The notes below the pieces were generated by a model. That model was not told the origin of the DNA and did no database searches. It saw nothing but the letters and a program-made list of their open reading frames with translations. Position numbers and translations under genes: made by a program. 36,063 nucleotides of DNA from a virus (taxonomy: Duplodnaviria; Caudoviricetes). Shown piece by piece: positions 1,883-36,063 of the stretch. Position 1 is the stretch's first letter; every line of letters starts with the position of its first letter. Location: positions 1 to 36,063 of IMG/VR virus record IMGVR_UViG_3300036942_000109; one strand, 5' to 3'.

Positions 1883-1927
1883 ATTATCACCTCTTTTTTT
1901 TATTTAGCTTGGTTAAAGCTATGTTAC

Positions 1928-15006: not shown

Positions 15007-15202
15007 AAGTTAGTCTAAAGTTTATTTTCATAGTTGAATTTTCAAGTTTTTCTACAGCTTCCCAAAATTTAGAAACACTTTTTTTATATTTGTTGAAAGT
15101 ATAACTCATATTTGTTCTGTTTCTCCAAACATTTTTAGGTCTTTTCATTTTATTATAAGCTTTCATATAATCACTCCTTTTAACAATCTGGGTTATATCC
15201 AT
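15005..15202 (-). CDS. Small basic hypothetical protein (start may be MKAYNK at 15166)
   Basis: ORF between the repA-like gene and the terminator; GGAG precedes 15166. Confidence 0.5.
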   Translation of the reverse strand: MDITQIVKRSDYMKAYNKMKRPKNVWRNRTNMSYTFNKYKKSVSKFWEAVEKLENSTMKINFRLT

Positions 15203-16028
15203 CTATATCAAATCTCTGCAACTCTACTATTCCAAGTTTGCTCATAACATAACCTAACGTTTTATAGCTGTATAAGTCTTGCATAGAATAGTATTTCCTA
15301 TCTAACATGAAATAAAAGTCCAACATATCAAATATTTGTTCCCAATTTTTGCAAACTTCACACACTGTATCATTTATCTGCTCTATAATGTTATCGAATT
15401 GTTCTTTGTTTAATTTATAGTGATTTATACCGTATTCTAGAAATTTATGATATGTTTTTTCTAATATTTCTCTAATCACTTCACTATTTGTATGTTTAGC
15501 TATATCCTCTTTGAATTCTGATATATTTTTATATCTGCAGTCAAGTAGACTGTGTCTACCCTTAATATATGTTTTTTTGTTATTAATAGAGTTATTATGA
15601 TTATAGTTATTATTATTAGCGTCTACGTTCGTGTACTTCTGTGTTTCCATTTGTGTACTACTGTGTTCACGTTCGTGTACTACTGTTGATTTTAATACGT
15701 TAGAGAGGTAGAACTTGCTAGAAGTGTTAAATCCTTTTTCTTGTAGTATCAGCTCTTTTTCCTTTAAACAGTTGATTCCTTTGGCTATACTGCCTTTAGA
15801 TTTTAAATCCAATATTTCCATAAGTTCTTCATAAGAATACTTTATAAAAACATTTCCATCTTTATCTAACCATTTGTTATAAGCAGATAATTTCAGCCTG
15901 TCAAAAAACTCTACATAAATTTTAAAAGCCAATTCGTTGATTTCTTTTTTCAGATACATATCCCATATAAATCTTGGAATTTGTAAGAAATTAAAATCTT
16001 TCAAATCGGCTTGCTTAATATAATTCAT
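15180..16028 (-). CDS. repA: Plasmid-type replication initiator, RepA_N family
   Basis: FLQIP...AFKIY...DRLKLS..NKWLDKDGNVFIKYSYEELMEIL...LKEKELI matches the RepA_N winged helix; ATG at 16028 after GGAGG; internal iterons. Confidence 0.82.
   Translation of the reverse strand: MNYIKQADLKDFNFLQIPRFIWDMYLKKEINELAFKIYVEFFDRLKLSAYNKWLDKDGNVFIKYSYEELMEILDLKSKGSIAKGINCLKEKELILQEKGFNTSSKFYLSNVLKSTVVHEREHSSTQMETQKYTNVDANNNNYNHNNSINNKKTYIKGRHSLLDCRYKNISEFKEDIAKHTNSEVIREILEKTYHKFLEYGINHYKLNKEQFDNIIEQINDTVCEVCKNWEQIFDMLDFYFMLDRKYYSMQDLYSYKTLGYVMSKLGIVELQRFDIDGYNPDC
15625..15690. repeat. Three 22-bp iteron-like direct repeats beside an AT-rich tract (putative oriV inside repA)
   Basis: GTGTACT(T/A)CTGT cores at 15631, 15653 and 15675 (exact 22-bp period); (TTA)n tract at about 15575-15620. 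Confidence 0.75.
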
Positions 16029-16036
16029 ATTTACCT

Positions 16037-16157
16037 CCACATTTCCCACAACTCTTTAAAATTAGTCGGAGGTTAAGTTGATGTGGGACAACTATACAAA
16101 GGCTCATGACTTCCTTTGCCAACCTCGACTATTATTAATTTCTTACACTGCATTATA
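16037..16157 (-). promoter_or_regulatory. repA promoter and structured 5' leader
   Basis: TGCTATAAT extended -10; outer stem 16063-16074/16121-16131 encloses two hairpins; one loop is complementary to RBS-proximal sequence. Confidence 0.6.
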
Positions 16158-16182: not shown

Positions 16183-17462
16183 TTAAAACATACTAATTTG
16201 TTCTTTTTCTTTTTCTTCTTTACACAAATCTTTTATATCGTTCGGCAGATAATCGGGTTTAGTCTTTAATCCTAATACCTGCATAACGTGTTCATAGTTA
16301 AGTTCTTTCATCAAATAATTATATAATTTTGGGTGTGTTTTACTCAATTCAACTATTCTATTAGTACCTGTTTTTTGTTCTTCTATATGACATCCAAACA
16401 AGCAACCATAACACATATTATTCCATTGTTTCCAATGGTACGGACTAACTCTTCATCTTTTCCAAGATGTGCGATGTTTCGAACGGTGGTAAACTCCGCC
16501 CTACTCCCCAACGGGATAGTCTCTACACTCTTTTTTGATTTTGTTTGTTTAGGTGATTACTACAACATACACCAAACAAACAACAAAATCAAATAAATAG
16601 CACGGGATTGGCATATTTTTTAAACTTAGCTTTCCCCGTTAGCCTGCTTCCAGACACCGCTTACCAAGCGTTAATCGCATTATTATAACCAACATCACTG
16701 TTGGAAACGGCTGTTTTACGAACCTGTTCTTGTTCTACCGTATTTAGTATACATTTCAGAAATTTCTAAATTAAATTCTTTTATGTACTGCCATATATCT
16801 TCCTCTTTCCAAAATCCAAGAGGTTTGCTTTGAGGATTTTTAGAGTTGAAACTATTACATCCAGTTTTTAAATAGCTTCTTTTCCTGCCGATGCTTTCGG
16901 AAGACATAACCCCAACAATGGCTTTTCTTTGAGTAGTTTTATTATAATTTTTTATAGGTTCTTTTTTTAGAACGTCACAACACTTATCGCTGATTTTAAA
17001 CGGTGCATTTGCTAAATATTTCCATTTTTCGCTTATTTTCCAACTTCCGTTTTTGCCTTCCCATCTTAGTTTTTTGGTTTTTTCTGATTTTGCATTTCTA
17101 TATTGCGATATATATTGTGATTGCTCTTTACTCACAACAGGGTACCCATATTTCTCAACAACATCTTTGAATTTCATTTTTGGGCATATCACATCTATAT
17201 TATATCCTTGTTTTTTTCTCATAATAACTTGTTTAATGGTTTCTGGAAATTCTTGTCCTGTATTTGAAAAAACAGCTTTTATATTAGGATATAAGCTTCT
17301 ACATATATCTAATAGAACTTCGCTATCTTTACCTCCACTATAGGCAACATAAACACCATCTAATCCAAATTCTTCTACCCACTCTTGTATTCTTAGTTTT
17401 GTTTTAGATATTTTAATGTCCAAGGGCAGGGATTGTAGCATAATCAATTCGTTATGCGTCAT
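16183..17462 (-). CDS. PAPS-reductase-like (PP-loop) protein, spliced: exon 1 17462-16722, exon 2 16413-16183, about 323 aa
   Basis: AYSGGKDS PP-loop, NTGQEFPE and KCCDVLKKEP motifs; splicing restores RTRTG|CYGCLFG. Confidence 0.85.
16414..16721 (-). ncRNA. Group I self-splicing intron, 308 nt, no ORF
   Basis: 5' exon ends GGU, pairing with GCC in P1 (U-G wobble); core elements GCUAACGGGGAA, CAAUCCCGUG, GUAGAGACUA and AAGAGUUAGUCC; terminal G; AACA/UGUU P10; exons join in frame. Confidence 0.92.
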
Positions 17463-18164: not shown

Positions 18165-18339
18165 TTTTAATCCTCCTATATTTCCCGTTAACAACTTCTT
18201 CCCCTTCACTCAAAAACAAAGGGTCTTCTATGTCGTCGTAATAAACCTCGCTGTCTATTTCAAACCTAAGATTTTTTTCTTTCGTGTAACTTACATACAG
18301 CACCAAAACTGCCATTATGCACAAGAATATATATCCCAT
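18157..18339 (-). CDS. Small single-TM hypothetical protein
   Basis: Hydrophobic N-terminus; start overlaps the upstream stop. Confidence 0.55.
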   Translation of the reverse strand: MGYIFLCIMAVLVLYVSYTKEKNLRFEIDSEVYYDDIEDPLFLSEGEEVVNGKYRRIKND

Positions 18340-18488
18340 TACTCTTCCTCCTTCAATTCTTCTATCGTTACGTTATACTTCTTCCCTAACTCCGCCTTAA
18401 TCATTCTAAGAACAGGTGCAGGGATTATAAACCCTTTGCTCGTTCCGTTTTTGGCGAGCTTGATTTCAAGCTCTATTTTACTTTTCAT
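18339..18488 (-). CDS. 49-aa AbrB/SpoVT-like DNA-binding protein (not in ORF track)
   Basis: MKSKIELEIKLAKNGTSKGFIIPAPVLRMIKAELGKKYNVTIEE; AGGAG RBS; first gene of the accessory block. Confidence 0.65.
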   Translation of the reverse strand: MKSKIELEIKLAKNGTSKGFIIPAPVLRMIKAELGKKYNVTIEELKEEE

Positions 18489-22292: not shown

Positions 22293-22442
22293 TTATTTGA
22301 AAACTACATAGTATTCATCATTGTGCCAACATTCCAATTGGTATACTCCGTTTCTACCAGCTGGTAGACTTACGGTTCCCCATTCATACCCTAGTCCTTC
22401 CATTTCTTCTGTGCTTTTCTTAGTTAGTATTTTCTTCTTCAT
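22293..22442 (-). CDS. 49-aa hypothetical protein (not in ORF track)
   Basis: MKKKILTKKSTEEMEGLGYEWG...; AAGGAG RBS; own consensus promoter. Confidence 0.65.
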   Translation of the reverse strand: MKKKILTKKSTEEMEGLGYEWGTVSLPAGRNGVYQLECWHNDEYYVVFK

Positions 22443-22520: not shown

Positions 22521-22667
22521 TTAATTTTTTTCAGAAGCTTTTATAATCGCTTCCGAATTAGTTTTTGCGTTCGTTTCTAATCTTAGAAGCAGCAAAGCTT
22601 TCTTGACAGCTTCTCTTTCTTCTTCGCTCTTGCAATATAGATGTAATGCTGCGTATCTTTTCTTCAT
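22521..22667 (-). CDS. 48-aa ribbon-helix-helix-like protein (not in ORF track)
   Basis: MKKRYAALHLYCKSEEEREAVKKALLLLRLETNAKTNSEAII; AAGGAG RBS; the beta-alpha-alpha pattern is inferred. Confidence 0.55.
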   Translation of the reverse strand: MKKRYAALHLYCKSEEEREAVKKALLLLRLETNAKTNSEAIIKASEKN

Positions 22668-23086: not shown

Positions 23087-23131
23087 CTTAATCACTCCTC
23101 ATTTTTTTATTTGCTTCATCTTTATATTAAT

Positions 23132-23160
23132 AATATACTACATATAAATACATATGTCAA
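23132..23160 (-). promoter_or_regulatory. Consensus sigma70 promoter
   Basis: TTGACA-17-TATATT. Confidence 0.75.
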
Positions 23161-23819: not shown

Positions 23820-24191
23820 TTAATTATAACATTGTTTCTTCCATTTTTCAACTGCTTTTTCTACACCTTTCTTACCAAACAGCCACATTGTTACAGTTTG
23901 CAGCAAACTCTCAAATGCGGGGTCTAACACCAGTTCAGGGAACTTATCCCCCGAAAAAAATTCTACATATGGAACTATAATCATATTATTAAGCATTATG
24001 AAAGCAAATAGCCAGTACAAGCAAGGTATAGCTCCTTTTTCAAACATAGTCTTAATCGCAGGTTGCTTTGTTCTTAGTATCTCTTTCTCTATCTCGGCAG
24101 TCATTCTATCTCTTTCTGCTTTATCTCCTACAAACTTACCAGCTACTCCACTTATTGCCTCTCCTATGCCTTTAGTATCAACTAATGCCAT
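23820..24191 (-). CDS. Holin (GTA 3TM-holin-like)
   Basis: KFVGDKAER...IPCLYWLFAFIML...LFGKKGVEK pattern; hydrophobic segments. Confidence 0.65.
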   Translation of the reverse strand: MALVDTKGIGEAISGVAGKFVGDKAERDRMTAEIEKEILRTKQPAIKTMFEKGAIPCLYWLFAFIMLNNMIIVPYVEFFSGDKFPELVLDPAFESLLQTVTMWLFGKKGVEKAVEKWKKQCYN

Positions 24192-25067: not shown

Positions 25068-25358
25068 TCATCTAACCGCCCCCAATCTTGAATTTTTTCT
25101 CTGCAAAACTAGATTGTTTGCAAATATACCTCTTGTTTTGCTATGGTAAGCCTTTTTCCCGCTCGGGAAAAGCTTTTCTATCTCCTTTAGCCTGCACCCT
25201 TTTTCTAATAGACATCTGCGAAAGTCTATTATTTTATTTATTTTTTTATCATAATAAGAACGCTCAAAACCTGTTAATTTATCTTTTTTCTGCAATTCTT
25301 GACAAAGTTTTATATCGTTTATTTCTAATCCAAATTTTTCTAAAGTTTCTTTAATCAT
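25068..25358 (-). CDS. Basic hypothetical protein
   Basis: AGGAGG RBS; 96 aa. Confidence 0.7.
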   Translation of the reverse strand: MIKETLEKFGLEINDIKLCQELQKKDKLTGFERSYYDKKINKIIDFRRCLLEKGCRLKEIEKLFPSGKKAYHSKTRGIFANNLVLQRKNSRLGAVR

Positions 25359-25368
25359 CTTGTCCTCC

Positions 25369-25397
25369 TTGATTTTTTCATTCTCAAGTGATATAAT
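25369..25397 (+). promoter_or_regulatory. Counter-oriented sigma70 promoter of the candidate antisense sRNA
   Basis: TTGATT-17-TATAAT with extended -10 TG, on the + strand inside an all-minus operon. Confidence 0.75.
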
Positions 25398-25403
25398 AAC
25401 TTA

Positions 25404-25462
25404 ATCACTCAATTTAATTTTTATTTAGTCGAAGTCCTAGTTCTCATCTGCTAGGACTTTTT
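25404..25462 (+). ncRNA. Candidate approximately 60-nt trans-acting antisense sRNA
   Basis: Lies between a promoter and the terminator hairpin AGTCCTAG-loop-CTAGGACT-TTTT; four blocks are complementary, in order, to 29491-29566. Confidence 0.7.
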
Positions 25463-25545
25463 ACTTTTCAAAACTTTTTCTTTTTCATCATAAATAACTT
25501 CTATATCTAATTTTCTAAAATATTCTATCAAACTTTCGATTTCTT

Positions 25546-27801: not shown

Positions 27802-28485
27802 TCACTCCCATATTTCTATTTCTTCCATTATGTTTATTTTTTTATCTTCTTTTATTTTTACTATCTTTTCATAACTGTTATGTTTTTCTATATCTTTTTT
27901 TATCCAGTTTTGTATAGCCAGATTATAATTACTGTACTTTTTATTTTTCTTGTTCTCCCAATCTTTTATTTTTTCTATGTATATTTCTATATCAACATCA
28001 GGAAATTTAGAATTTAAATTTTCTATTTGTTCTGGTGTTAATAAGTTTTTATTTTTTTCTATTTCTATCTCTATTTCTTTCTCTTTATCTTTATCTAACT
28101 CTTTCTCTGTTGTATTATTAACTGTATTATTAATTGTATTATTAACTGTATTACTCTCTATAAACTTTTCTTGCATAGGGTCTTTAACATTCCTTATATA
28201 CCCTCTATAACAAACCTTTAATACCCTCTTTAATATTTGTTTGGTACCCTCTTTATAGATTATTGTAGAGGTTATATATTTTTTTTTAACCAAACTATTT
28301 ATAACTATACTGACTCTAGTTTTGCTTAAACCAAAAAATTTAGAAAAATATTCATTCCCAGCATAACAACCTTGTTCGTTGTCTAAGCTGTCTATCTCAA
28401 CTAAAAAAACTTTTTCTTGTAATGTTAATTCTTCAGAAAGCCATATATCTTTAGGTATCCAAATACCTTTAAAATCTCTTTCCAC
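27802..28485 (-). CDS. Phage replication initiator/replisome organiser (N-terminal winged HTH)
   Basis: FKGIWIPKDIW...EKVFLVEIDSLDNEQGCYAGNEYFSKFFGLSKTRVS; C-terminal KKYSNYNLAIQNW. Confidence 0.8.
   Translation of the reverse strand: MERDFKGIWIPKDIWLSEELTLQEKVFLVEIDSLDNEQGCYAGNEYFSKFFGLSKTRVSIVINSLVKKKYITSTIIYKEGTKQILKRVLKVCYRGYIRNVKDPMQEKFIESNTVNNTINNTVNNTTEKELDKDKEKEIEIEIEKNKNLLTPEQIENLNSKFPDVDIEIYIEKIKDWENKKNKKYSNYNLAIQNWIKKDIEKHNSYEKIVKIKEDKKINIMEEIEIWE
28111..28155. repeat. 12-bp tandem repeat (TGTATTATTAAC, about 3.7 copies) inside the initiator; possible lytic origin
   Basis: Units start at 28111, 28123, 28135 and 28147. Confidence 0.65.
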
Positions 28486-28634
28486 TATTCCACCACCTCA
28501 ACAGTAATTTTTTTTCCTTTTACAATCCAGTTTATACCCTTAGCTTTTGGGTATTTTTCTAAAACAAACTTTGGAACGGTTGCTTGTTTTGAATTGTTAC
28601 CAACATTTCTAAGAGTAGTCATTTTTTCTTTCAT
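28485..28634 (-). CDS. 49-aa AbrB/SpoVT-like protein (not in ORF track)
   Basis: MKEKMTTLRNVGNNSKQATVPKFVLEK...INWIVKGKKITVEVVE; AGGAGG RBS. Confidence 0.7.
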   Translation of the reverse strand: MKEKMTTLRNVGNNSKQATVPKFVLEKYPKAKGINWIVKGKKITVEVVE

Positions 28635-28662
28635 TTATAACCTCCTTTCTGTAGCTACTTAG

Positions 28663-28691
28663 ATTATATAATTAATAGCTACTCTTGTCAA
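28663..28691 (-). promoter_or_regulatory. Perfect-consensus promoter of the replication operon
   Basis: TTGACA-17-TATAAT; AGTAGCTA occurs in the spacer and again just downstream of the -10. Confidence 0.85.
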
Positions 28692-29193: not shown

Positions 29194-29388
29194 TTAATCC
29201 TCCTTTTTTCTTATCAAAAATTCATATCCCAACAGTCCTAAAACTTCTTGAGCTGTATTAAATTTCATATCCTCTTTGTTTACCCAATTTGATACCGTTT
29301 GTTTTGTCACACCAAATTTGCTAGCTATCCAATCTTGTTTTACACCTTCTTTTAGTATCAATTCTTTTATTTCTTTATTTATATTCAT
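29194..29388 (-). CDS. XRE/Cro-type HTH regulator, 64 aa
   Basis: VKQDWIASKFGVTKQTVSNWV helix-turn-helix; sits at the divergence point. Confidence 0.85.
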   Translation of the reverse strand: MNINKEIKELILKEGVKQDWIASKFGVTKQTVSNWVNKEDMKFNTAQEVLGLLGYEFLIRKKED

Positions 29389-29443: not shown

Positions 29444-29472
29444 TTGACATAAACTATTTTTTACTGTAAACT
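29444..29472 (+). promoter_or_regulatory. Rightward early promoter
   Basis: TTGACA-17-TAAACT. Confidence 0.75.
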
Positions 29473-29570
29473 GTACATAAGATGAGGCTTTAGCAGATGT
29501 TAAAGCAAGTCACTAAGTAGATGTGGCGAACTAGGACTGATAAAAATAAAAATATGGAGGATTGAGAAAA

Positions 29571-29825
29571 ATGAAAATTATAATTGATTTGCTTGAACTC
29601 CCAGACTGGGATATACAGCAAAGATTAAATAGCTCGGCTGATTTAGTGTGCGACCAGCAACACGTAAAAAATCTTGTTGCTCAAGAAATAATGGACGGCG
29701 ACTACTTAGATGTTTTCTTTGAACTTGAATTCGAATTCTCATATGACGGTTGGTTTATAGACAACTGTGAGAATAACAAGTTTATCGAACTTAACGGAAA
29801 ATACATATTTAGGCTTGACAGATAG
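29571..29825 (+). CDS. Acidic hypothetical protein, first gene of the rightward operon
   Basis: GGAGG RBS, ATG at 29571; D/E-rich. Confidence 0.7.
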   Translation: MKIIIDLLELPDWDIQQRLNSSADLVCDQQHVKNLVAQEIMDGDYLDVFFELEFEFSYDGWFIDNCENNKFIELNGKYIFRLDR

Positions 29826-29847: not shown

Positions 29848-30420
29848 ATGAATATATATGAGAAATTATCAATTGCAAGAGTTCAGTTACAAGAAGCTGA
29901 ACTAAAAAAAACAGGAGAAAATAAATTTGCTAAGTTCAAATATTATGAACTGGCAGATATACTTCCTGCGATAAACAGCATAAACAAAGAACTTAAATTA
30001 ATATCTTTGTTTGAGTTTGATAGCGAAAATGCAACGCTAAAATTAATTAATTGTGAGAGATCGGACGAGGTAATTTCTTTTGAAATACCAAATGTTCCAG
30101 CTCAAATGAAAGGGGCTAATCCTATTCAAGAGTTAGGAGCTACTTCAACTTACTTGAGAAGATATCTATATTTAAACGCTTATGAGATACAAGAAGCTGA
30201 TGTAGTAGATAGCTTAGACAAAGACAAACACGACACTGCAAAACGTCCAAAAACTCAAAACAAAATATTCGACAAGGACAAAGCTATAAAAGCCTGCCTT
30301 GACATCATAGGCGACGATATGGACAGGCTAGATAAGATTACTTCGCACTACAAAGTTGAAGGATTAATGCAGATGTCTGAAGCTCAACTGAAAGACTGTT
30401 ATAAAAATTTGAGGAAGTGA
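29848..30420 (+). CDS. ERF-family single-strand annealing protein
   Basis: MNIYEKL...KKTGENKFAKFKYYELADI...GATSTYLRRY. Confidence 0.88.
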   Translation: MNIYEKLSIARVQLQEAELKKTGENKFAKFKYYELADILPAINSINKELKLISLFEFDSENATLKLINCERSDEVISFEIPNVPAQMKGANPIQELGATSTYLRRYLYLNAYEIQEADVVDSLDKDKHDTAKRPKTQNKIFDKDKAIKACLDIIGDDMDRLDKITSHYKVEGLMQMSEAQLKDCYKNLRK

Positions 30421-30499
30421 TTTTATGAGAAAAGACTATAACAAAGCAAGGACGGATATATACAATCTGCCCTTGCACAAAATAACAGGAGGAATTTAA

Positions 30500-31003
30500 A
30501 TGAAAATGTATGAAATGATTGAAACTAGAAAAGAAATATTGTATCTAATTGACAAAGAAGAACTAGAAGAACAAGACTTAAAAGACTTAGATGAATTTAT
30601 TTTGTCTGAATTACAAGAGAAAGGCAAAGGACTAATATTTGTTAACTCCGAGTTTGAAACAGAACTTGAAAAGATAAAAAGACTTGAAAATATGCTTAAA
30701 GACAGAAAGAAAGTCATTTCTAATAATCAAAGCAGATTCAAAGAAAAGATAAAATACACTATGCAAGAACTGGAAATAAAATCTGTGAAAACAGAGCTTG
30801 GGAATATAACTCTAAGAAAAGGTGTCGAAAGCTTAATAGTGGAAGACAATGCTAAAGTTCCTTCTGAATTTGAAATAGTAAAAGTAGAAATAGATAAAAA
30901 ACAACTAAAAGACGCTGTAAAAAAAGGTCTTGAAGTTGATGGAGTGTATCTGAAGGTTGGGGACAATTCAGTAGTTATGCCTAAGGGGGTAAAAAATGAA
31001 TAG
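30500..31003 (+). CDS. Siphovirus Gp157-like protein
   Basis: MKMYEM, coiled coil, VPSEF...IDKKQLKDAVKKGLEVDGV. Confidence 0.8.
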   Translation: MKMYEMIETRKEILYLIDKEELEEQDLKDLDEFILSELQEKGKGLIFVNSEFETELEKIKRLENMLKDRKKVISNNQSRFKEKIKYTMQELEIKSVKTELGNITLRKGVESLIVEDNAKVPSEFEIVKVEIDKKQLKDAVKKGLEVDGVYLKVGDNSVVMPKGVKNE

Positions 31004-31364
31004 TGTAATCTTAACAGGGAATCTCACAAAAGACCCAGAACTTAAATATGGAGCTAGTGGTGGAGCGTATACACGTTTCACTCTAGCTGTATCAAGAGAG
31101 TTTAAAAAGGGCGAAACAGACTTTATAAGTTGCACGGCTTTTGGAAAGACCGCAGAGCTTATAGGAGAGTATCTAAGAAAAGGAAGTAAGTGTGGAGTTC
31201 AAGGAAGGCTACAACAGGACAGCTACGAAAAAGACGGACAAAAGGTTAGCAAAACAGGTGTAATTGTTGACAGAATAGAGTTCTTAAGTTCAAAGCAAGA
31301 GCAAGAAATAAAATTTAGCAAGATAGATAGAGAAGATGATTTTGAGGACGAATTCCCTTTTTGA
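30996..31364 (+). CDS. ssb: Single-stranded DNA-binding protein
   Basis: MNSVILTGNLTKDPELKY...TDFISCTAFGKTAE; acidic tail DEFPF. Confidence 0.95.
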   Translation: MNSVILTGNLTKDPELKYGASGGAYTRFTLAVSREFKKGETDFISCTAFGKTAELIGEYLRKGSKCGVQGRLQQDSYEKDGQKVSKTGVIVDRIEFLSSKQEQEIKFSKIDREDDFEDEFPF

Positions 31365-31389
31365 CAAAATAAAAATTTAGGAGGTATAA

Positions 31390-32325
31390 ATGAACAAAAA
31401 TAAAGTACTTGTCCTAGGAACAGGGCAAGCTGGAGGAAACATTGCAGAAGAAATGGCAGGGCTAGGGTATGAAACTCTAGCTTTCAATACTGCAAATAGT
31501 GACTTAGACAAGTTAGAAAAAGTTGTTAATAAGATTGTTATAGGAAATACAGAAGGGAGTGGAAAAAACAGAAATCTCTCAAAAGATAATTTTTCAAAAG
31601 AAAGAAACAAGGTAAGAGAAGCCTTACAAAGTTGTTTCAAGAATAGCAAGATTGAGCTTGTTATAATCCCGTTTGGAGCAGGAGGTGGAACTGGTAGTGG
31701 TTCTGCTCTGCTTCTGGCTGATGAGGTTAGAAGCTTGGGGAAAAAGGCGTGGTTAGCACCTATTATGTATTATGAGAACGAGGGGAATATAACCAAACTA
31801 AACTCTACTTCATTTATAAGGGATTTTGAAAAGGTAAAAGATGTTTATCCTTGCTTCATATTCAACAACACTTCCGATACTCAATCTATTAACAAATACA
31901 TAGCTACAGCTTTTGACGAGCTAATTAATGAAGGTGGAAGTTGTGAAACTGTATTCGATTTCAGGGATTTGATGAACACAGTTAGAGCTGGATATAACTA
32001 TCTAGGTCGTGGAATGGGTAATCAAATCAAAGTACACGCTGATATATTAGATAATAGCCAATCAAAGTATGCGACTCTTATAAAATCTAACAAGGTTAAG
32101 GAAGATGGCTACAACATCTTGAACACGCTTAACTTTGGTAACGTAGATAGAAATTATTATCAAATAATAGCAGAACAAGAGAAATGGTTACTTTTATTAG
32201 GGGGAATGTATCTTAATAATGAAGTTGTAAAAGAGTTGCAGGCAGAAGCTCAAAAGACAATATCAGAAATCAAGAAAAAAGATGAAGTTGTTAATCTTGA
32301 TTTAGATACAGACGGAATATTTTAG
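31390..32325 (+). CDS. Tubulin/FtsZ-superfamily GTPase (TubZ/PhuZ-like)
   Basis: GTGQAGGNI, FNTANSD, EGSGKNR, signature GAGGGTGSG, T7-loop FDFRDL. Confidence 0.92.
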   Translation: MNKNKVLVLGTGQAGGNIAEEMAGLGYETLAFNTANSDLDKLEKVVNKIVIGNTEGSGKNRNLSKDNFSKERNKVREALQSCFKNSKIELVIIPFGAGGGTGSGSALLLADEVRSLGKKAWLAPIMYYENEGNITKLNSTSFIRDFEKVKDVYPCFIFNNTSDTQSINKYIATAFDELINEGGSCETVFDFRDLMNTVRAGYNYLGRGMGNQIKVHADILDNSQSKYATLIKSNKVKEDGYNILNTLNFGNVDRNYYQIIAEQEKWLLLLGGMYLNNEVVKELQAEAQKTISEIKKKDEVVNLDLDTDGIF

Positions 32326-32342: not shown

Positions 32343-32564
32343 GAATTATAAGGAGTGATGACTTATGAAAGAAAAAGAAATAATGCTTGTGTGTAAAGAG
32401 TATGGTTGCACGCAAGAAGGATTAAAAAACTTAAAATTTGTAATGTTCCTGACAAGGATTTTGATTTCATTAGCTTGGCAGGATACTCCAATCCAAACTA
32501 CTGTATTGGTTGGAGAGGAATGCCTATCTCTGCCTCAAACTTCCTTTTTTAATTTTTTAAACTC

Positions 32565-32593
32565 TTGACTTATTCACTAAAATATGCTATAAT
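32565..32593 (+). promoter_or_regulatory. tnpB promoter
   Basis: TTGACT-17-TATAAT with extended -10. Confidence 0.8.
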
Positions 32594-32623
32594 ATATTAT
32601 AGTGAAGAAGTGAGGTGATATTA

Positions 32624-33745
32624 ATGTTAAGTACAATTACTGCAAAAATTAAAATTATGCCTACTGATATTCAATCTGAACACTTAAAAAATACTATGAG
32701 TAAATATGTAAAAGGTTGTAATTTTGTTTCTGAATATATTTTTGATTCTCAAGATTTGAATCAAAGTAGTGTACACAAACACTCTTACAATGAATTAAGA
32801 AATAACTTTAGTTTGAAATCTCAAATGGCTTGTTCTGTTGTTAAAACAGTTATAGCAAGATATAAATCAGCAAAATCAAATGGTCACAAATTTAGCTTGA
32901 TTAATTTTAAAAAACCAGAATATGACCTTGTTTGGAATAGAGACTATTCTTTAAACATTGAAAAACAAGTATTTTCTGTCAATTCTGTTGACGGAAGATT
33001 AAAAATACCTTTTGAAATCAAATCTATGGAAAAATACTTTGATAAAACTTGGGTATTTGGTACCGCTAAATTAGTATACAAATTCGACAAATTCTTTTTG
33101 CATATCCCTATGACAAAAGAGATGCCCGACTTTGATTATACAACCTGTAACAAAGTTGTAGGTATTGATTTAGGTATTAATTTTTTAGCAACCACTTATG
33201 ATTCTGAAGGTAAAACTGACTTTTTTAATGGTAGACAAATTAAGAATAAACGAGGTCAATTTTCTAAAATCAGAAAAGAATTACAACAGGTTAAAACACC
33301 TTCTTCAAGAAAAAGATTAAAAGCTATCGGTTCAAGAGAAAACCGTTGGGTAACGGATATAAATCATCAAGTTACAAAGGCACTCGTTGATAAATACGGT
33401 AGCAATACTCTTTTTGTTTTAGAAGACTTATCTAATGTTAGACAAGCTACTGAAAAAGTTAGAAAGAATAATCGTTATGTTTCTGTTTCTTGGAGTTTCT
33501 ATCAATTTAGACAAATGCTTGAATACAAAGCGAGTCTCGTTGGTTCTAAAGTGATTGTTGTTGACCCTAAATACACTTCTCAAACTTGTCCAAAATGTGG
33601 TCATGTAGAAAAGTCTAACAGAAACAAGAAAACTCATACTTTTAAATGCAAAACCTGTGGTTATACAAGTAATGATGACCGTATAGGTGCAATTAACCTT
33701 CAAGCTAAAGGTGTAAACTATATAGCTGAAGGATTATATCAGTAA
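32624..33745 (+). CDS. tnpB: RNA-guided endonuclease TnpB
   Basis: RuvC motifs GIDLG, VLEDL and NDDRIGAINL; Zn ribbon CPKC...CKTC; ATG at 32624 after GAGGTG. Confidence 0.95.
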   Translation: MLSTITAKIKIMPTDIQSEHLKNTMSKYVKGCNFVSEYIFDSQDLNQSSVHKHSYNELRNNFSLKSQMACSVVKTVIARYKSAKSNGHKFSLINFKKPEYDLVWNRDYSLNIEKQVFSVNSVDGRLKIPFEIKSMEKYFDKTWVFGTAKLVYKFDKFFLHIPMTKEMPDFDYTTCNKVVGIDLGINFLATTYDSEGKTDFFNGRQIKNKRGQFSKIRKELQQVKTPSSRKRLKAIGSRENRWVTDINHQVTKALVDKYGSNTLFVLEDLSNVRQATEKVRKNNRYVSVSWSFYQFRQMLEYKASLVGSKVIVVDPKYTSQTCPKCGHVEKSNRNKKTHTFKCKTCGYTSNDDRIGAINLQAKGVNYIAEGLYQ

Positions 33746-34421: not shown

Positions 34422-34806
34422 GTTTTCTCTGCCTGTGTACTATACCAAAAAAACTAGAAAAGGGTATAAAACTTTTCTGGTTGGTCTTAACTGGTATAGG
34501 AACGCACACTATCAAGAAGCTAACAAGGTTAAAAAGTACTATCACGAGCTCATAAAATCAATTCTAAGCCCTTACAACGGAGATAAACTAACAAAGTATA
34601 GGATAAAGTACAAATTGTTCTACAAGAACAGTATAAGTGATTTGAACAACTATGTTGTTATAGATAAGTTTTTGAATGACGCTTTGAAAGAAATTAGAAT
34701 GATAGAAGACGATAATGTAAATTATCTGAAAAAAATAAGTCTTGAAGTAGCTGAACAAGATAAAGAAAACCCTAGATTAGAAATAGAATTGGAGGAGATT
34801 GAATGA
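34411..34806 (+). CDS. RusA-like Holliday junction resolvase
   Basis: DLNN...KFLNDAL...IEDDN...NPRLEIEL. Confidence 0.8.
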   Translation: MSYKFSLPVYYTKKTRKGYKTFLVGLNWYRNAHYQEANKVKKYYHELIKSILSPYNGDKLTKYRIKYKLFYKNSISDLNNYVVIDKFLNDALKEIRMIEDDNVNYLKKISLEVAEQDKENPRLEIELEEIE

Positions 34807-35321
34807 GTGGATTTTTAGACGTTTTCAAAAAACCTTATTACAAAGAAGAAAAAATAAAAATATTAGAAGAAATCGGATTTGAAGTTAATGAAGCTATGAG
34901 AATGAAAATAATATATGAAGATATGATTTTGAAAGCTTACAAGTGTAGCCAGGGAGTTCTCACAATCGGGATAGGTTGCACTACATACGAGGACGGCTCA
35001 AAGGTTAAAGAAGGAGATGTTATAAGCTTGAAAAGAGCTATTGAATTATTTGAGTTTCATTATCATAAAGCTTGTGAGTCTTTGAATTATCTATTTTACT
35101 TTGACGAGTTAGAGTATATGGGAGAAGTTAGAAAAAATGTATTAATAGACCTTGTTTTTAACATGGGACTTGCAGGAGTTAAGAAGTTCCCTAAGATGTT
35201 GAAAGCTTTGAGGGAAGGCGACTGGGAAGAAGCAGGAGAACAGCTTAAGGATAGCTTATATTACAAACAAGTAGGACAAAGGGCTGTTGATAATGTGCAG
35301 AGATTGAAAGAGGGGCATTAA
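34803..35321 (+). CDS. Endolysin, GH24/T4-type lysozyme
   Basis: E-x8-C-x5-T triad (YEDMILKAYKCSQGVLTIGIG); FNMG...FPKML...S.YYKQVGQRA. Confidence 0.88.
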   Translation: MSGFLDVFKKPYYKEEKIKILEEIGFEVNEAMRMKIIYEDMILKAYKCSQGVLTIGIGCTTYEDGSKVKEGDVISLKRAIELFEFHYHKACESLNYLFYFDELEYMGEVRKNVLIDLVFNMGLAGVKKFPKMLKALREGDWEEAGEQLKDSLYYKQVGQRAVDNVQRLKEGH

Positions 35322-35451: not shown

Positions 35452-35738
35452 ATCACACCACCTTGAGCTAATGCCAACTCTTCCATTTGTACTAGTCTTT
35501 CTTTCAGCAAATCATTTTCTGATTTTTCAGCGAGAACAAACCAACTTTCGTTGTTATACACAATATTTTGCACAAGTTTCATATTGTAATACACTTGAGT
35601 TATTTCCTCATCTATAATTTCAACTCTTTCTAAGTTGTTCTCAAATATAGAAGAATCAATTATTTTTTTTGAAATATAGTTGTTTCCATTAAGTGTTAAA
35701 TTTTCTATAACTTGACCATCTTGTAATTTTATTTTCAT
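35448..35738 (-). CDS. Tail-fibre-associated protein
   Basis: AGGAGG RBS; directly follows the receptor-binding gene. Confidence 0.7.
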   Translation of the reverse strand: MKIKLQDGQVIENLTLNGNNYISKKIIDSSIFENNLERVEIIDEEITQVYYNMKLVQNIVYNNESWFVLAEKSENDLLKERLVQMEELALAQGGVI

Positions 35739-36063
35739 ATTTTACCTCCTTAGTATATGGAGAAAGCAGGGCGAACACCAGGAGCACTAGACGCAATGCT
35801 AGCATCCACATAGCCATAACTGTTCACATAAGCGAAATGAGAGGCGGTGGCAACGTCTCTAAGCCAGAAAGCTTGACGATTAGATATTAGGTCAGGTCTG
35901 AAGACAAACAAAGGTAATTGACTCTTCCCAAGCCCAACATTGTATCCACTACCGCCCCCGAGGTTGCTATCCCCAAAGACATTTGAACCATAGAGCATAT
36001 TTTCACACATTAATTCTACTTCACTATCATACCAAGCCCAGCCACTTGATTTGCCATTTGCGG
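35639..36063. repeat. Terminal direct repeat, copy 2
   Basis: Offset 35,638 from copy 1; 120 bp identical, then diverged. Confidence 0.95.
35750..36061 (-). CDS. 3' part of a second allele of the receptor-binding protein, cut by the window edge
   Basis: Frame is open to the window end (ANGKSSGWAWYDSEVELMCEN...GVRPAFSIY) and colinear with 112-423. Confidence 0.85.
   Translation of the reverse strand, partial: ANGKSSGWAWYDSEVELMCENMLYGSNVFGDSNLGGGSGYNVGLGKSQLPLFVFRPDLISNRQAFWLRDVATASHFAYVNSYGYVDASIASSAPGVRPAFSIY

Follow-up and report, generated by a model that had tools for sequence, protein, structure and literature searches.

A putative antisense RNA of a tubulin-encoding tailed phage with predicted pairing to the leader of the rightward early operon

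RNA control of phage development is described, in the available parts of the literature compared here, for phages of Gram-negative hosts (P1, P4, lambda, P22 and VP882). The C4 RNA of P1 and P7 pairs in trans with a phage mRNA in separate blocks near the RBS, and its loop is the likely first contact (available parts of PMC5320573 and PMC12197685). The CI RNA of P4 is processed from the transcript that it controls, in which seqA and seqC flank it, and acts by premature termination (available part of PMC4825925). According to the available part of PMC12197685, the antisense RNAs aQ and OOP of lambda and sar of P22 target overlapping or antirepressor genes, while VpdS of VP882 and PreS of lambda are stand-alone sRNAs that act in trans, depend on Hfq and mostly target host RNAs.

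Here we describe a candidate sRNA (25404..25466, plus strand) in a window of 36,063 nt, the whole stretch of DNA analysed, which is a single-contig genome record of a low-GC tailed phage of about 36 kb. Judged from its sequence, the candidate is probably a new phage sRNA that acts in trans as an antisense RNA against the leader of the rightward operon and blocks translation of ORF84. Like C4 of P1 and P7, it carries separate complementary blocks, one of them at an RBS, a loop is the likely first contact, and the host phage appears to be of the plasmid-prophage type. However, C4 folds into three stem-loops of about 77 nt and is released from a longer transcript by RNase P, whereas in the sRNA one single hairpin doubles as the terminator, the 5′ tail is open, a promoter and a terminator of its own are predicted and there is no sign of RNase P processing. 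C4 is located in its target operon and acts on ant; the sRNA is encoded 4 kb away from its main predicted target, the recombination-tubulin operon, whose first gene, ORF84, has no family. An Rfam search of the whole window gave no match at E up to 1, so that the C4 model was not matched. With P4 CI, the sRNA has in common the predicted antisense pairing with an early-transcript leader at more than one complementary site, but its gene is separate and lies 4 kb off on the other arm, and no terminator is found in the predicted duplex. The sRNA is predicted to work like P1 C4 but is no member of C4 or P4 CI. An antisense promoter inside an early operon is also found for aQ, OOP and sar, and the cis overlap near the operon end is aQ-like; unlike these RNAs, the sRNA has an imperfect second target in the other early operon. 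As a stand-alone phage RNA with predicted trans action it resembles VpdS and PreS, from which it differs by pairing over nearly its full length and by targeting the phage's own leader. In the titles and abstract openings of the openly accessible literature, subscription papers being outside the scope, no description of this RNA or phage was found.

The predicted promoter of the sRNA (25369..25397, plus strand) is of the sigma-70 type, with TTGATT, a spacer of 17 nt and an extended -10 element (TG-N-TATAAT), and its -35 element lies directly next to the ORF96 RBS of the opposite strand. It is one of ten sites that pass a strict genome-wide promoter filter and one of two such sites on the plus strand left of 29400. 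The RNA of about 60 nt, with its start placed by the distance from the -10 element, contains no ATG. Its 5′ tail (25404..25426, plus strand) is predicted to be single-stranded and to pair on either side of the ORF84 SD, and the AUCACUC at its 5′ end is the complement of GAGUGAU. The tail is followed by a terminator-like hairpin (25431..25460, plus strand) of 11 pairs and a U-run, the loop of which (25442-25449) is complementary to AGAUGAG. The hairpin fold has a z-score of -5.57, was equalled by none of 200 shuffles and is the stronger of two plus-strand sites in a terminator scan. The plus strand folds better than the minus strand (-16.2 versus -12.3 kcal/mol) because the G-U pairs of the stem form on the plus strand only, and the U-run is likewise limited to that strand. 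The promoter and terminator motifs of the preliminary description are present, and as far as motifs can tell, the unit has the own promoter, terminator and non-coding character of trans-encoded sRNAs in general. Since a promoter-like site, a terminator-like hairpin and complementarity to a leader occur together, the phage likely makes this sRNA. An inverted repeat (AGTGAT-N11-ATCACT, 25388-25409) lies across the -10 element and the start and is a possible operator.

The unit is located in an intercistronic part of the leftward replication mRNA (25359..25545, minus strand), which carries the perfect complement of the sRNA. The resulting cis duplex (-102.6 kcal/mol) is far stronger than the trans duplex described below. 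No minus-strand terminator was found in 25359-25545. The next gene downstream of the cis-antisense stretch is ORF96 (25068..25358, minus strand), near the end of the replication operon, for which there was no usable Atlas match.

The primary predicted target is the rightward leader (29479..29570, plus strand), which comprises 92 nt with two predicted hairpins. It is preceded by a predicted promoter (TTGACA-17-TAAACT, 29444..29472, plus strand) that stands back to back with the leftward promoter at 29435-29407. The leftward operon starts with a gene for a Cro/CI-like HTH protein of 64 aa that lacks a peptidase (29194..29388, minus strand). The first gene of the rightward operon is ORF84 (29571..29825, plus strand), which encodes an acidic protein of 84 aa, and genes for an ERF annealase, a Gp157/Gam-like protein, SSB and tubulin follow (29848..32325, plus strand). 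For ORF84, neither a family match (PHROGs, Pfam) nor a toxin family nor a usable Atlas match was found, and an alpha/beta fold was predicted with confidence by one of five models. Searches for functions of ORF84 and ORF96 gave a best structural Z of 4.1, which is not meaningful, and no viral match at E under 0.001; the match to P0037 is repetitive and of low complexity. The leader carries AGATG three times (29480..29523, plus strand): at 29480 in the 5′ single strand, at 29495 in the loop of hairpin 1 and at 29519 in the loop and closing pair of hairpin 2. In the modelled structure these copies are candidate nucleation sites. Three copies within 45 nt occur nowhere else in the genome, and 17 of 200 locally shuffled genomes had such a triple. 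This triple and the perfect complement in the leftward mRNA go beyond what had been noticed in the preliminary description.

Pairing energies were calculated with ViennaRNA (duplex and cofold). All four blocks for which complementarity to the leader had been claimed are exact reverse complements. The lowest-energy duplex is colinear and contains 47 bp, four of them G-U, between sRNA positions 25408-25459 and leader positions 29507-29566 (plus strand), thereby taking in 29528-38, 29544-53 and 29559-66 around the SD. As to the register, the blocks at 29528-38, 29544-53 and 29561-66 are used as had been proposed, but the block at 29491-99 is not: sRNA positions 25445-25459 pair with 29507-29523 instead. 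Hairpin 1 of the leader thus stays intact, and 29491-99 would be an alternative contact outside the final duplex. The two blocks reported to flank the RBS of ORF84 are indeed paired, but they are rich in A/T and in part generic; the genome contains AAATAAAAA 17 times, compared to a mean of 8.05 in local shuffles, and this sequence is also found upstream of the SD of a late tail gene. The exact 11-nt block was found at the sRNA and the leader only. Most of the SD core is unpaired in the predicted dimer, whereas the A-rich tract upstream of it and the SD-AUG spacer are paired, so that the 30S subunit should be excluded, given the known footprint of initiation. A terminator, that is a hairpin with a U-run, was found neither in the free nor in the sRNA-paired leader, and silencing past the first gene would therefore need polarity or decay. 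Of the proposed silencing of the whole ERF-SSB-tubulin operon, the pairing at the first-gene RBS is retained and the downstream part depends on these processes. Net pairing is still favourable at 60 °C (-12.3).

In a scan of 3580 windows, the leader was the top trans site of the sRNA with -44.6 kcal/mol, as the preliminary description had predicted for 29479-29570. The next unrelated site reached -39.0 kcal/mol; the mean of the scan was -17.8 and its standard deviation 5.3. In the reverse scan the sRNA was the best partner of the leader among all 59-nt windows, making the two reciprocal best matches. None of 2000 leader shuffles and none of 2000 sRNA shuffles reached -44.6. The same holds for random sRNAs that retained hairpin and composition and were scanned against seeded windows throughout the genome (0 of 37 and 0 of 115, i.e. 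0/152); in two of these 152 the best site contained the RBS of a first gene. Among 56 gene starts, that of ORF84 ranks first for pairing with the sRNA (z -4.05, 0/200). The net energy of the full unit (-23.5) was matched or beaten by 1 of 37 random sRNAs, 6 of 500 sRNA shuffles and 0 of 500 leader shuffles. When no condition is set, the match is unremarkable. In self-BLAST searches the pair ranks 202nd of 1080 (E 163) and 508th of 775, and it is missing from the 711 matches of a third scoring. Among 16,920 pairs of a non-coding window and a leader, it is third by duplex energy; when 1500 pairs were rescored by net energy, a shifted window without the 3′ stem arm came first and the full unit was outside the top 25. 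The case therefore rests on the fact that the match joins a promoter-terminator unit to a promoter-proximal leader. In net energy the opposite-strand pair is almost equal (-22.0 versus -23.5), so the wobble orientation does not discriminate the direction.

Among the matches listed for related strains, the sRNA region was seen only in run X13 and the leader only in run X18, and no relative with both was found. The X13 contig that covers promoter and sRNA (25324-25539) differs from the window at 3 places in 216 nt, by one substitution and two insertions; among the matches listed, the four blocks, the promoter hexamers and the stem are free of them. The adjoining contig over ORF96 has 26 differences in 272 nt (Fisher p 6e-5 versus the sRNA region), a contrast that may reflect strain mixing or recombination. 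In the more distant relative X18, from activated sludge, the leader has 4 differences in 65 nt, compared to about 12 in 73 for the promoter part, 25 in 139 for ORF84 and 19 in 206 for the HTH gene among the matches listed. For the leader, Fisher's test gives p 0.017 when compared with ORF84, 0.051 with the promoter part and 0.097 with the pool of all other pieces listed; all these tests assume independent sites and one strain per contig. Taken from these alignments, the sRNA region and the leader appear to be more conserved than neighbouring coding DNA in X13 and X18. Both leader changes listed for X18, at 29492 and 29502, replace A by G opposite a U of hairpin 1 and would keep a G-U pair, and the former would also keep a G-U pair with the sRNA. 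The other two of the four may fall in block 29528-38. Read by hand, two X18 contigs run on behind 29553 with TAGGAGTGA, an SD variant, with which the window's sRNA (not X18's own) would pair by 6 bp on the SD itself and by 12 bp upstream of it; this is not covariation. Runs X10, X11, X12, X14, X15 and X17 had no informative variants among the matches listed, and scanning viral contigs for the motifs yielded 1 and 5 matches, all judged to be chance. High-depth contigs of X10 and X11 match short pieces at about 25356 and 29981 and are then unlike the window; these are possibly host CRISPR spacers.

The best-matching metagenomes come from oil fields, and 9 of the 20 runs listed are possible sources of the contig; no RNA run is among these 20, which has no bearing on expression. 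The closest database matches of the phage are Firmicutes phages and plasmids; GenBank phages gave distant matches only. A 300-nt repeat at both ends, with a spacing of 35,638, suggests that the genome is a nearly closed circle. Protein families were searched with PHROGs (58 ORFs) and Pfam (50 ORFs). Matches were obtained for capsid, terminase, primase-helicase, an O-like initiator, ERF, Gp157 and SSB, and further for tubulin, TnpB, RusA, lysozyme, Rha and the 64-aa HTH protein. No integrase was matched in either set of ORFs, and, in line with the preliminary description, neither set contains a peptidase-bearing CI. Two initiator genes are present, each with its own in-gene repeats. A RepA_N initiator (15180..16049, minus strand) carries three repeats spaced by 22 bp at 15625-15686 and is the candidate plasmid replicon, and the O-like initiator (27802..28485, minus strand), with three repeats spaced by 23 bp at 28170-28255 and followed by the primase-helicase, is the candidate lytic replicon. 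These two initiators would fit a phage-plasmid, and the combination of capsid, terminase, RepA_N with repeats and tubulin with no integrase match has the gene content of this type. A temperate lifestyle as a plasmid prophage is plausible from the sequence. A partition-type or tubulin-like protein alone is no proof of plasmid lysogeny (available part of PMC8026635). Scans of genomes and metagenomes with tubulin alignments found distant tubulins only, with 25-42% identity over long alignments, and protein-based scans with ORF84, tubulin and primase found nothing or distant phages alone. Several of the viral contigs L085-L094 carry a distant tubulin (about 30%). In L091 (9750-11020) the tubulin gene follows a small gene in an early operon of what looks by eye like an integrated-type gut prophage with CI/Cro-like and integrase-like genes. 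Downstream of tubulin, the rightward operon contains a TnpB gene (32365-33745, plus strand) with 64% to TnpBs of Bacillus plasmids and its own strong promoter at 32565. The last gene of this apparently early operon is a lysozyme gene (34803-35321, plus strand), distant from a holin-like gene at 23820-24191.

In the proposed mechanism, a non-coding RNA of about 60 nt would be transcribed from its own promoter at 25369, pair over nearly its full length with the leader of the ORF84-ERF-SSB-tubulin operon and block translation of the first gene. The terminator loop would make the first contact with one of the three AGAUG sites, the 5′ arm of the sRNA stem would then swap onto the unpaired GAACUAGGACU, and the U-rich tail would clamp the SD from either side, with the SD-AUG spacer included. 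Expression of the downstream genes would fall only via polarity or decay by RNase III. Since no minus-strand terminator was found in 25545-25359, the leftward mRNA should read through. This mRNA carries the perfect complement, and its transcription runs head-on into the sRNA promoter, so that the sRNA would be lost and the rightward operon set free when the leftward operon is transcribed. The leftward replication mRNA could thus titrate the sRNA, and the two transcripts may form a toggle. The sRNA would keep the recombination arm low in the plasmid prophage and tie recombination to replication, and a role in holding the plasmid prophage is plausible. It would probably act alongside the 64-aa HTH protein and not instead of it. 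A Cro/CI-type HTH gene at the divergent promoters means that a missing peptidase-bearing CI does not imply control by RNA only. The trans antisense sRNA of the preliminary description therefore stands as the best reading, and its RNA-based immunity switch goes beyond the evidence. If the pairing is real, an RNA transcribed antisense to one early operon and pairing in trans with the other would be a way to couple replication and recombination genes, and this would be a stand-alone phage sRNA unrelated to known ones in a low-GC phage with Firmicutes-type matches.

It seems rather unlikely, but deserves consideration, that the match is a relic of a leader/RBS stretch copied into the leftward operon, where the plus-strand hairpin stops antisense read-through or acts in cis, as lambda aQ and OOP do, with no pairing in trans. 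Read on its minus strand, the unit aligns with the leaders of ORF84 and of the promoter at 23160, and its likeness to the latter extends 3 nt upstream of the inferred sRNA start. As the match continues past this start, the sRNA gene probably began as a copied leader/RBS stretch that is now read backwards. The far stronger cis duplex, the sRNA promoter abutting the ORF96 RBS and the ordinary similarity of the unconditioned pair fit a relic as well. However, leader and sRNA region appear more conserved than adjacent coding DNA in X18 and X13, the exact 11-nt block is limited to these two places, and the leader shows the complement of the loop three times. An origin by duplication and a present antisense function are compatible. 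The copies could also be a same-sense RNA motif (AGAUG loop, GAACUAGGACU and A-rich tract) found in the rightward leader as well as the leftward mRNA, where it would be recognised by a protein or by RNA polymerase, for example in antitermination of the nut/put type or as a translational operator. Consistent with this, the minus strand folds too (-12.3 kcal/mol, z -3.69) and exposes AGAUG in a loop, a weak minus-strand promoter lies at 25549-25522, and the 23160 leader starts with a near copy of the first 10 nt of the rightward leader. We consider a shared motif improbable: it leaves the plus-only G-U pairs, the U-run and the extended -10 promoter unexplained, the copies are predicted to fold differently, with GAACUAGGACU forming a stem arm in one copy but staying unpaired in the second, and no RNA-binding regulator was recognised in the PHROGs and Pfam searches of the ORFs. 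Complementarity that arose by chance in an A/T-rich genome and was picked after the fact has just as little to recommend it. Many pairs do score alike in self-BLAST and in the ranking of 16,920 pairs, and two of the four blocks are of low complexity. Yet the left 29 kb contain no second strong promoter-terminator unit on the plus strand, and the best match of the query is a promoter-proximal leader.

Even a real trans-acting RNA might be a lytic timing device that shuts off early translation and plays no part in a prophage. This version has a limited probability, which is contained in that of the trans-acting RNA and not added to it. It agrees with the fact that no integrase and no peptidase-bearing CI were found, with the restricted value of tubulin-like proteins as proof of plasmid lysogeny, and with the early lytic operon in which L091, an integrated-type gut prophage, has its tubulin. 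The two initiators, each with a repeat array, instead fit a phage-plasmid, and the sRNA promoter is host-type and not a late-type palindrome, so that it should fire early. A type I-like antitoxin for ORF84, which had also been suggested, is highly improbable. The first gene is small and without family, and the pairing spans its RBS. Type I toxins, however, are usually small and hydrophobic, whereas the ORF84 protein is acidic, is predicted to have an alpha/beta fold (one of five models confident) and matches no toxin family, and the RNA lies 4 kb away from it.

For the trans-acting antisense sRNA, three further early sites are possible secondary targets. The leader of the 23160 promoter (23087..23125, minus strand) contains AGATGA, AAATAAAAA and GAGTGAT in the order of the sRNA. 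Apart from this leader, only the complement of the sRNA itself has this order, and none of 100 shuffles reproduced it, for a pattern defined after inspection; the start of this leader is the near copy of the rightward leader mentioned above. The leader of a Rha/antirepressor-like gene (1883..1908, minus strand) could form a 12-bp helix with one G-U pair with the sRNA tail in addition to pairing at the SD. It is the longest tail helix, and 2 of 200 random tails did as well, with this being one of 56 starts tested. The next-longest is an 11-nt complement just upstream of the tubulin SD (31367..31377, plus strand). Helices of at least 9 bp with the sRNA tail were found at 12 of the 56 starts, and 12 of 300 shuffled tails do as well. 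Net energies of the secondary targets are only -10 to -12, and the case for a broad early-gene regulon is weak. The widest reading is unlikely, namely that post-transcriptional control of a tubulin-bearing phage-plasmid is locked mainly by the 60-nt RNA, which would silence the recombination-tubulin arm via the three-site kissing leader, damp the Rha/antirepressor-like and other early leaders via its anti-SD tail and be erased by the replication mRNA. If this were true, an RNA-RNA toggle would join two divergent early operons without a cleavable CI.

Several further features were observed in the genome. A palindrome occurs four times, at about 1185, 13741, 21946 and 24884, ahead of structural and lysis blocks. 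The four copies are probably late promoters for a phage activator, and ORF96 or ORF43, just upstream of one of them, is a candidate for this activator. Three small ORFs on the minus strand (28485-28691, 22521-22667 and 18339-18488) look AbrB-like or ribbon-helix-helix-like by eye and have no library match. The promoter at 28691 carries repeated AGTAGCTA, and a motif is common to the 23160 and 22513 promoters, which suggests local autoregulation; in the search for a shared operator among strong promoters, this pair was the only one with a common motif. The strongest long-range inverted repeat (22383-22411 versus 31445-31473, 27/29, E 5e-5) gives a 49-aa early ORF and the N-terminal region of tubulin the peptide EEMxGLGYE in common. 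It is a recombination patch, a tubulin mimic or chance, and no plus-strand terminator was found there. A PAPS-reductase-like gene is interrupted in frame (...RTG / CYGC...) by a 308-nt insert (16414-16721, minus strand). T is the last base of the exon and G that of the insert; Rfam gave no match for the insert, and it contains what we take to be group I-like core motifs. The C-terminus of a tail fibre, ending in GVRPAFSIY, is present in two versions at 1-330 and 35639-35970 (minus strand), and one of them has a weak DUF6273 match. Their last ~70 codons are divergent and the sequence downstream is identical; the window has no reverse transcriptase match, and the divergence presumably reflects a DGR-type variable region or two variant genome ends.
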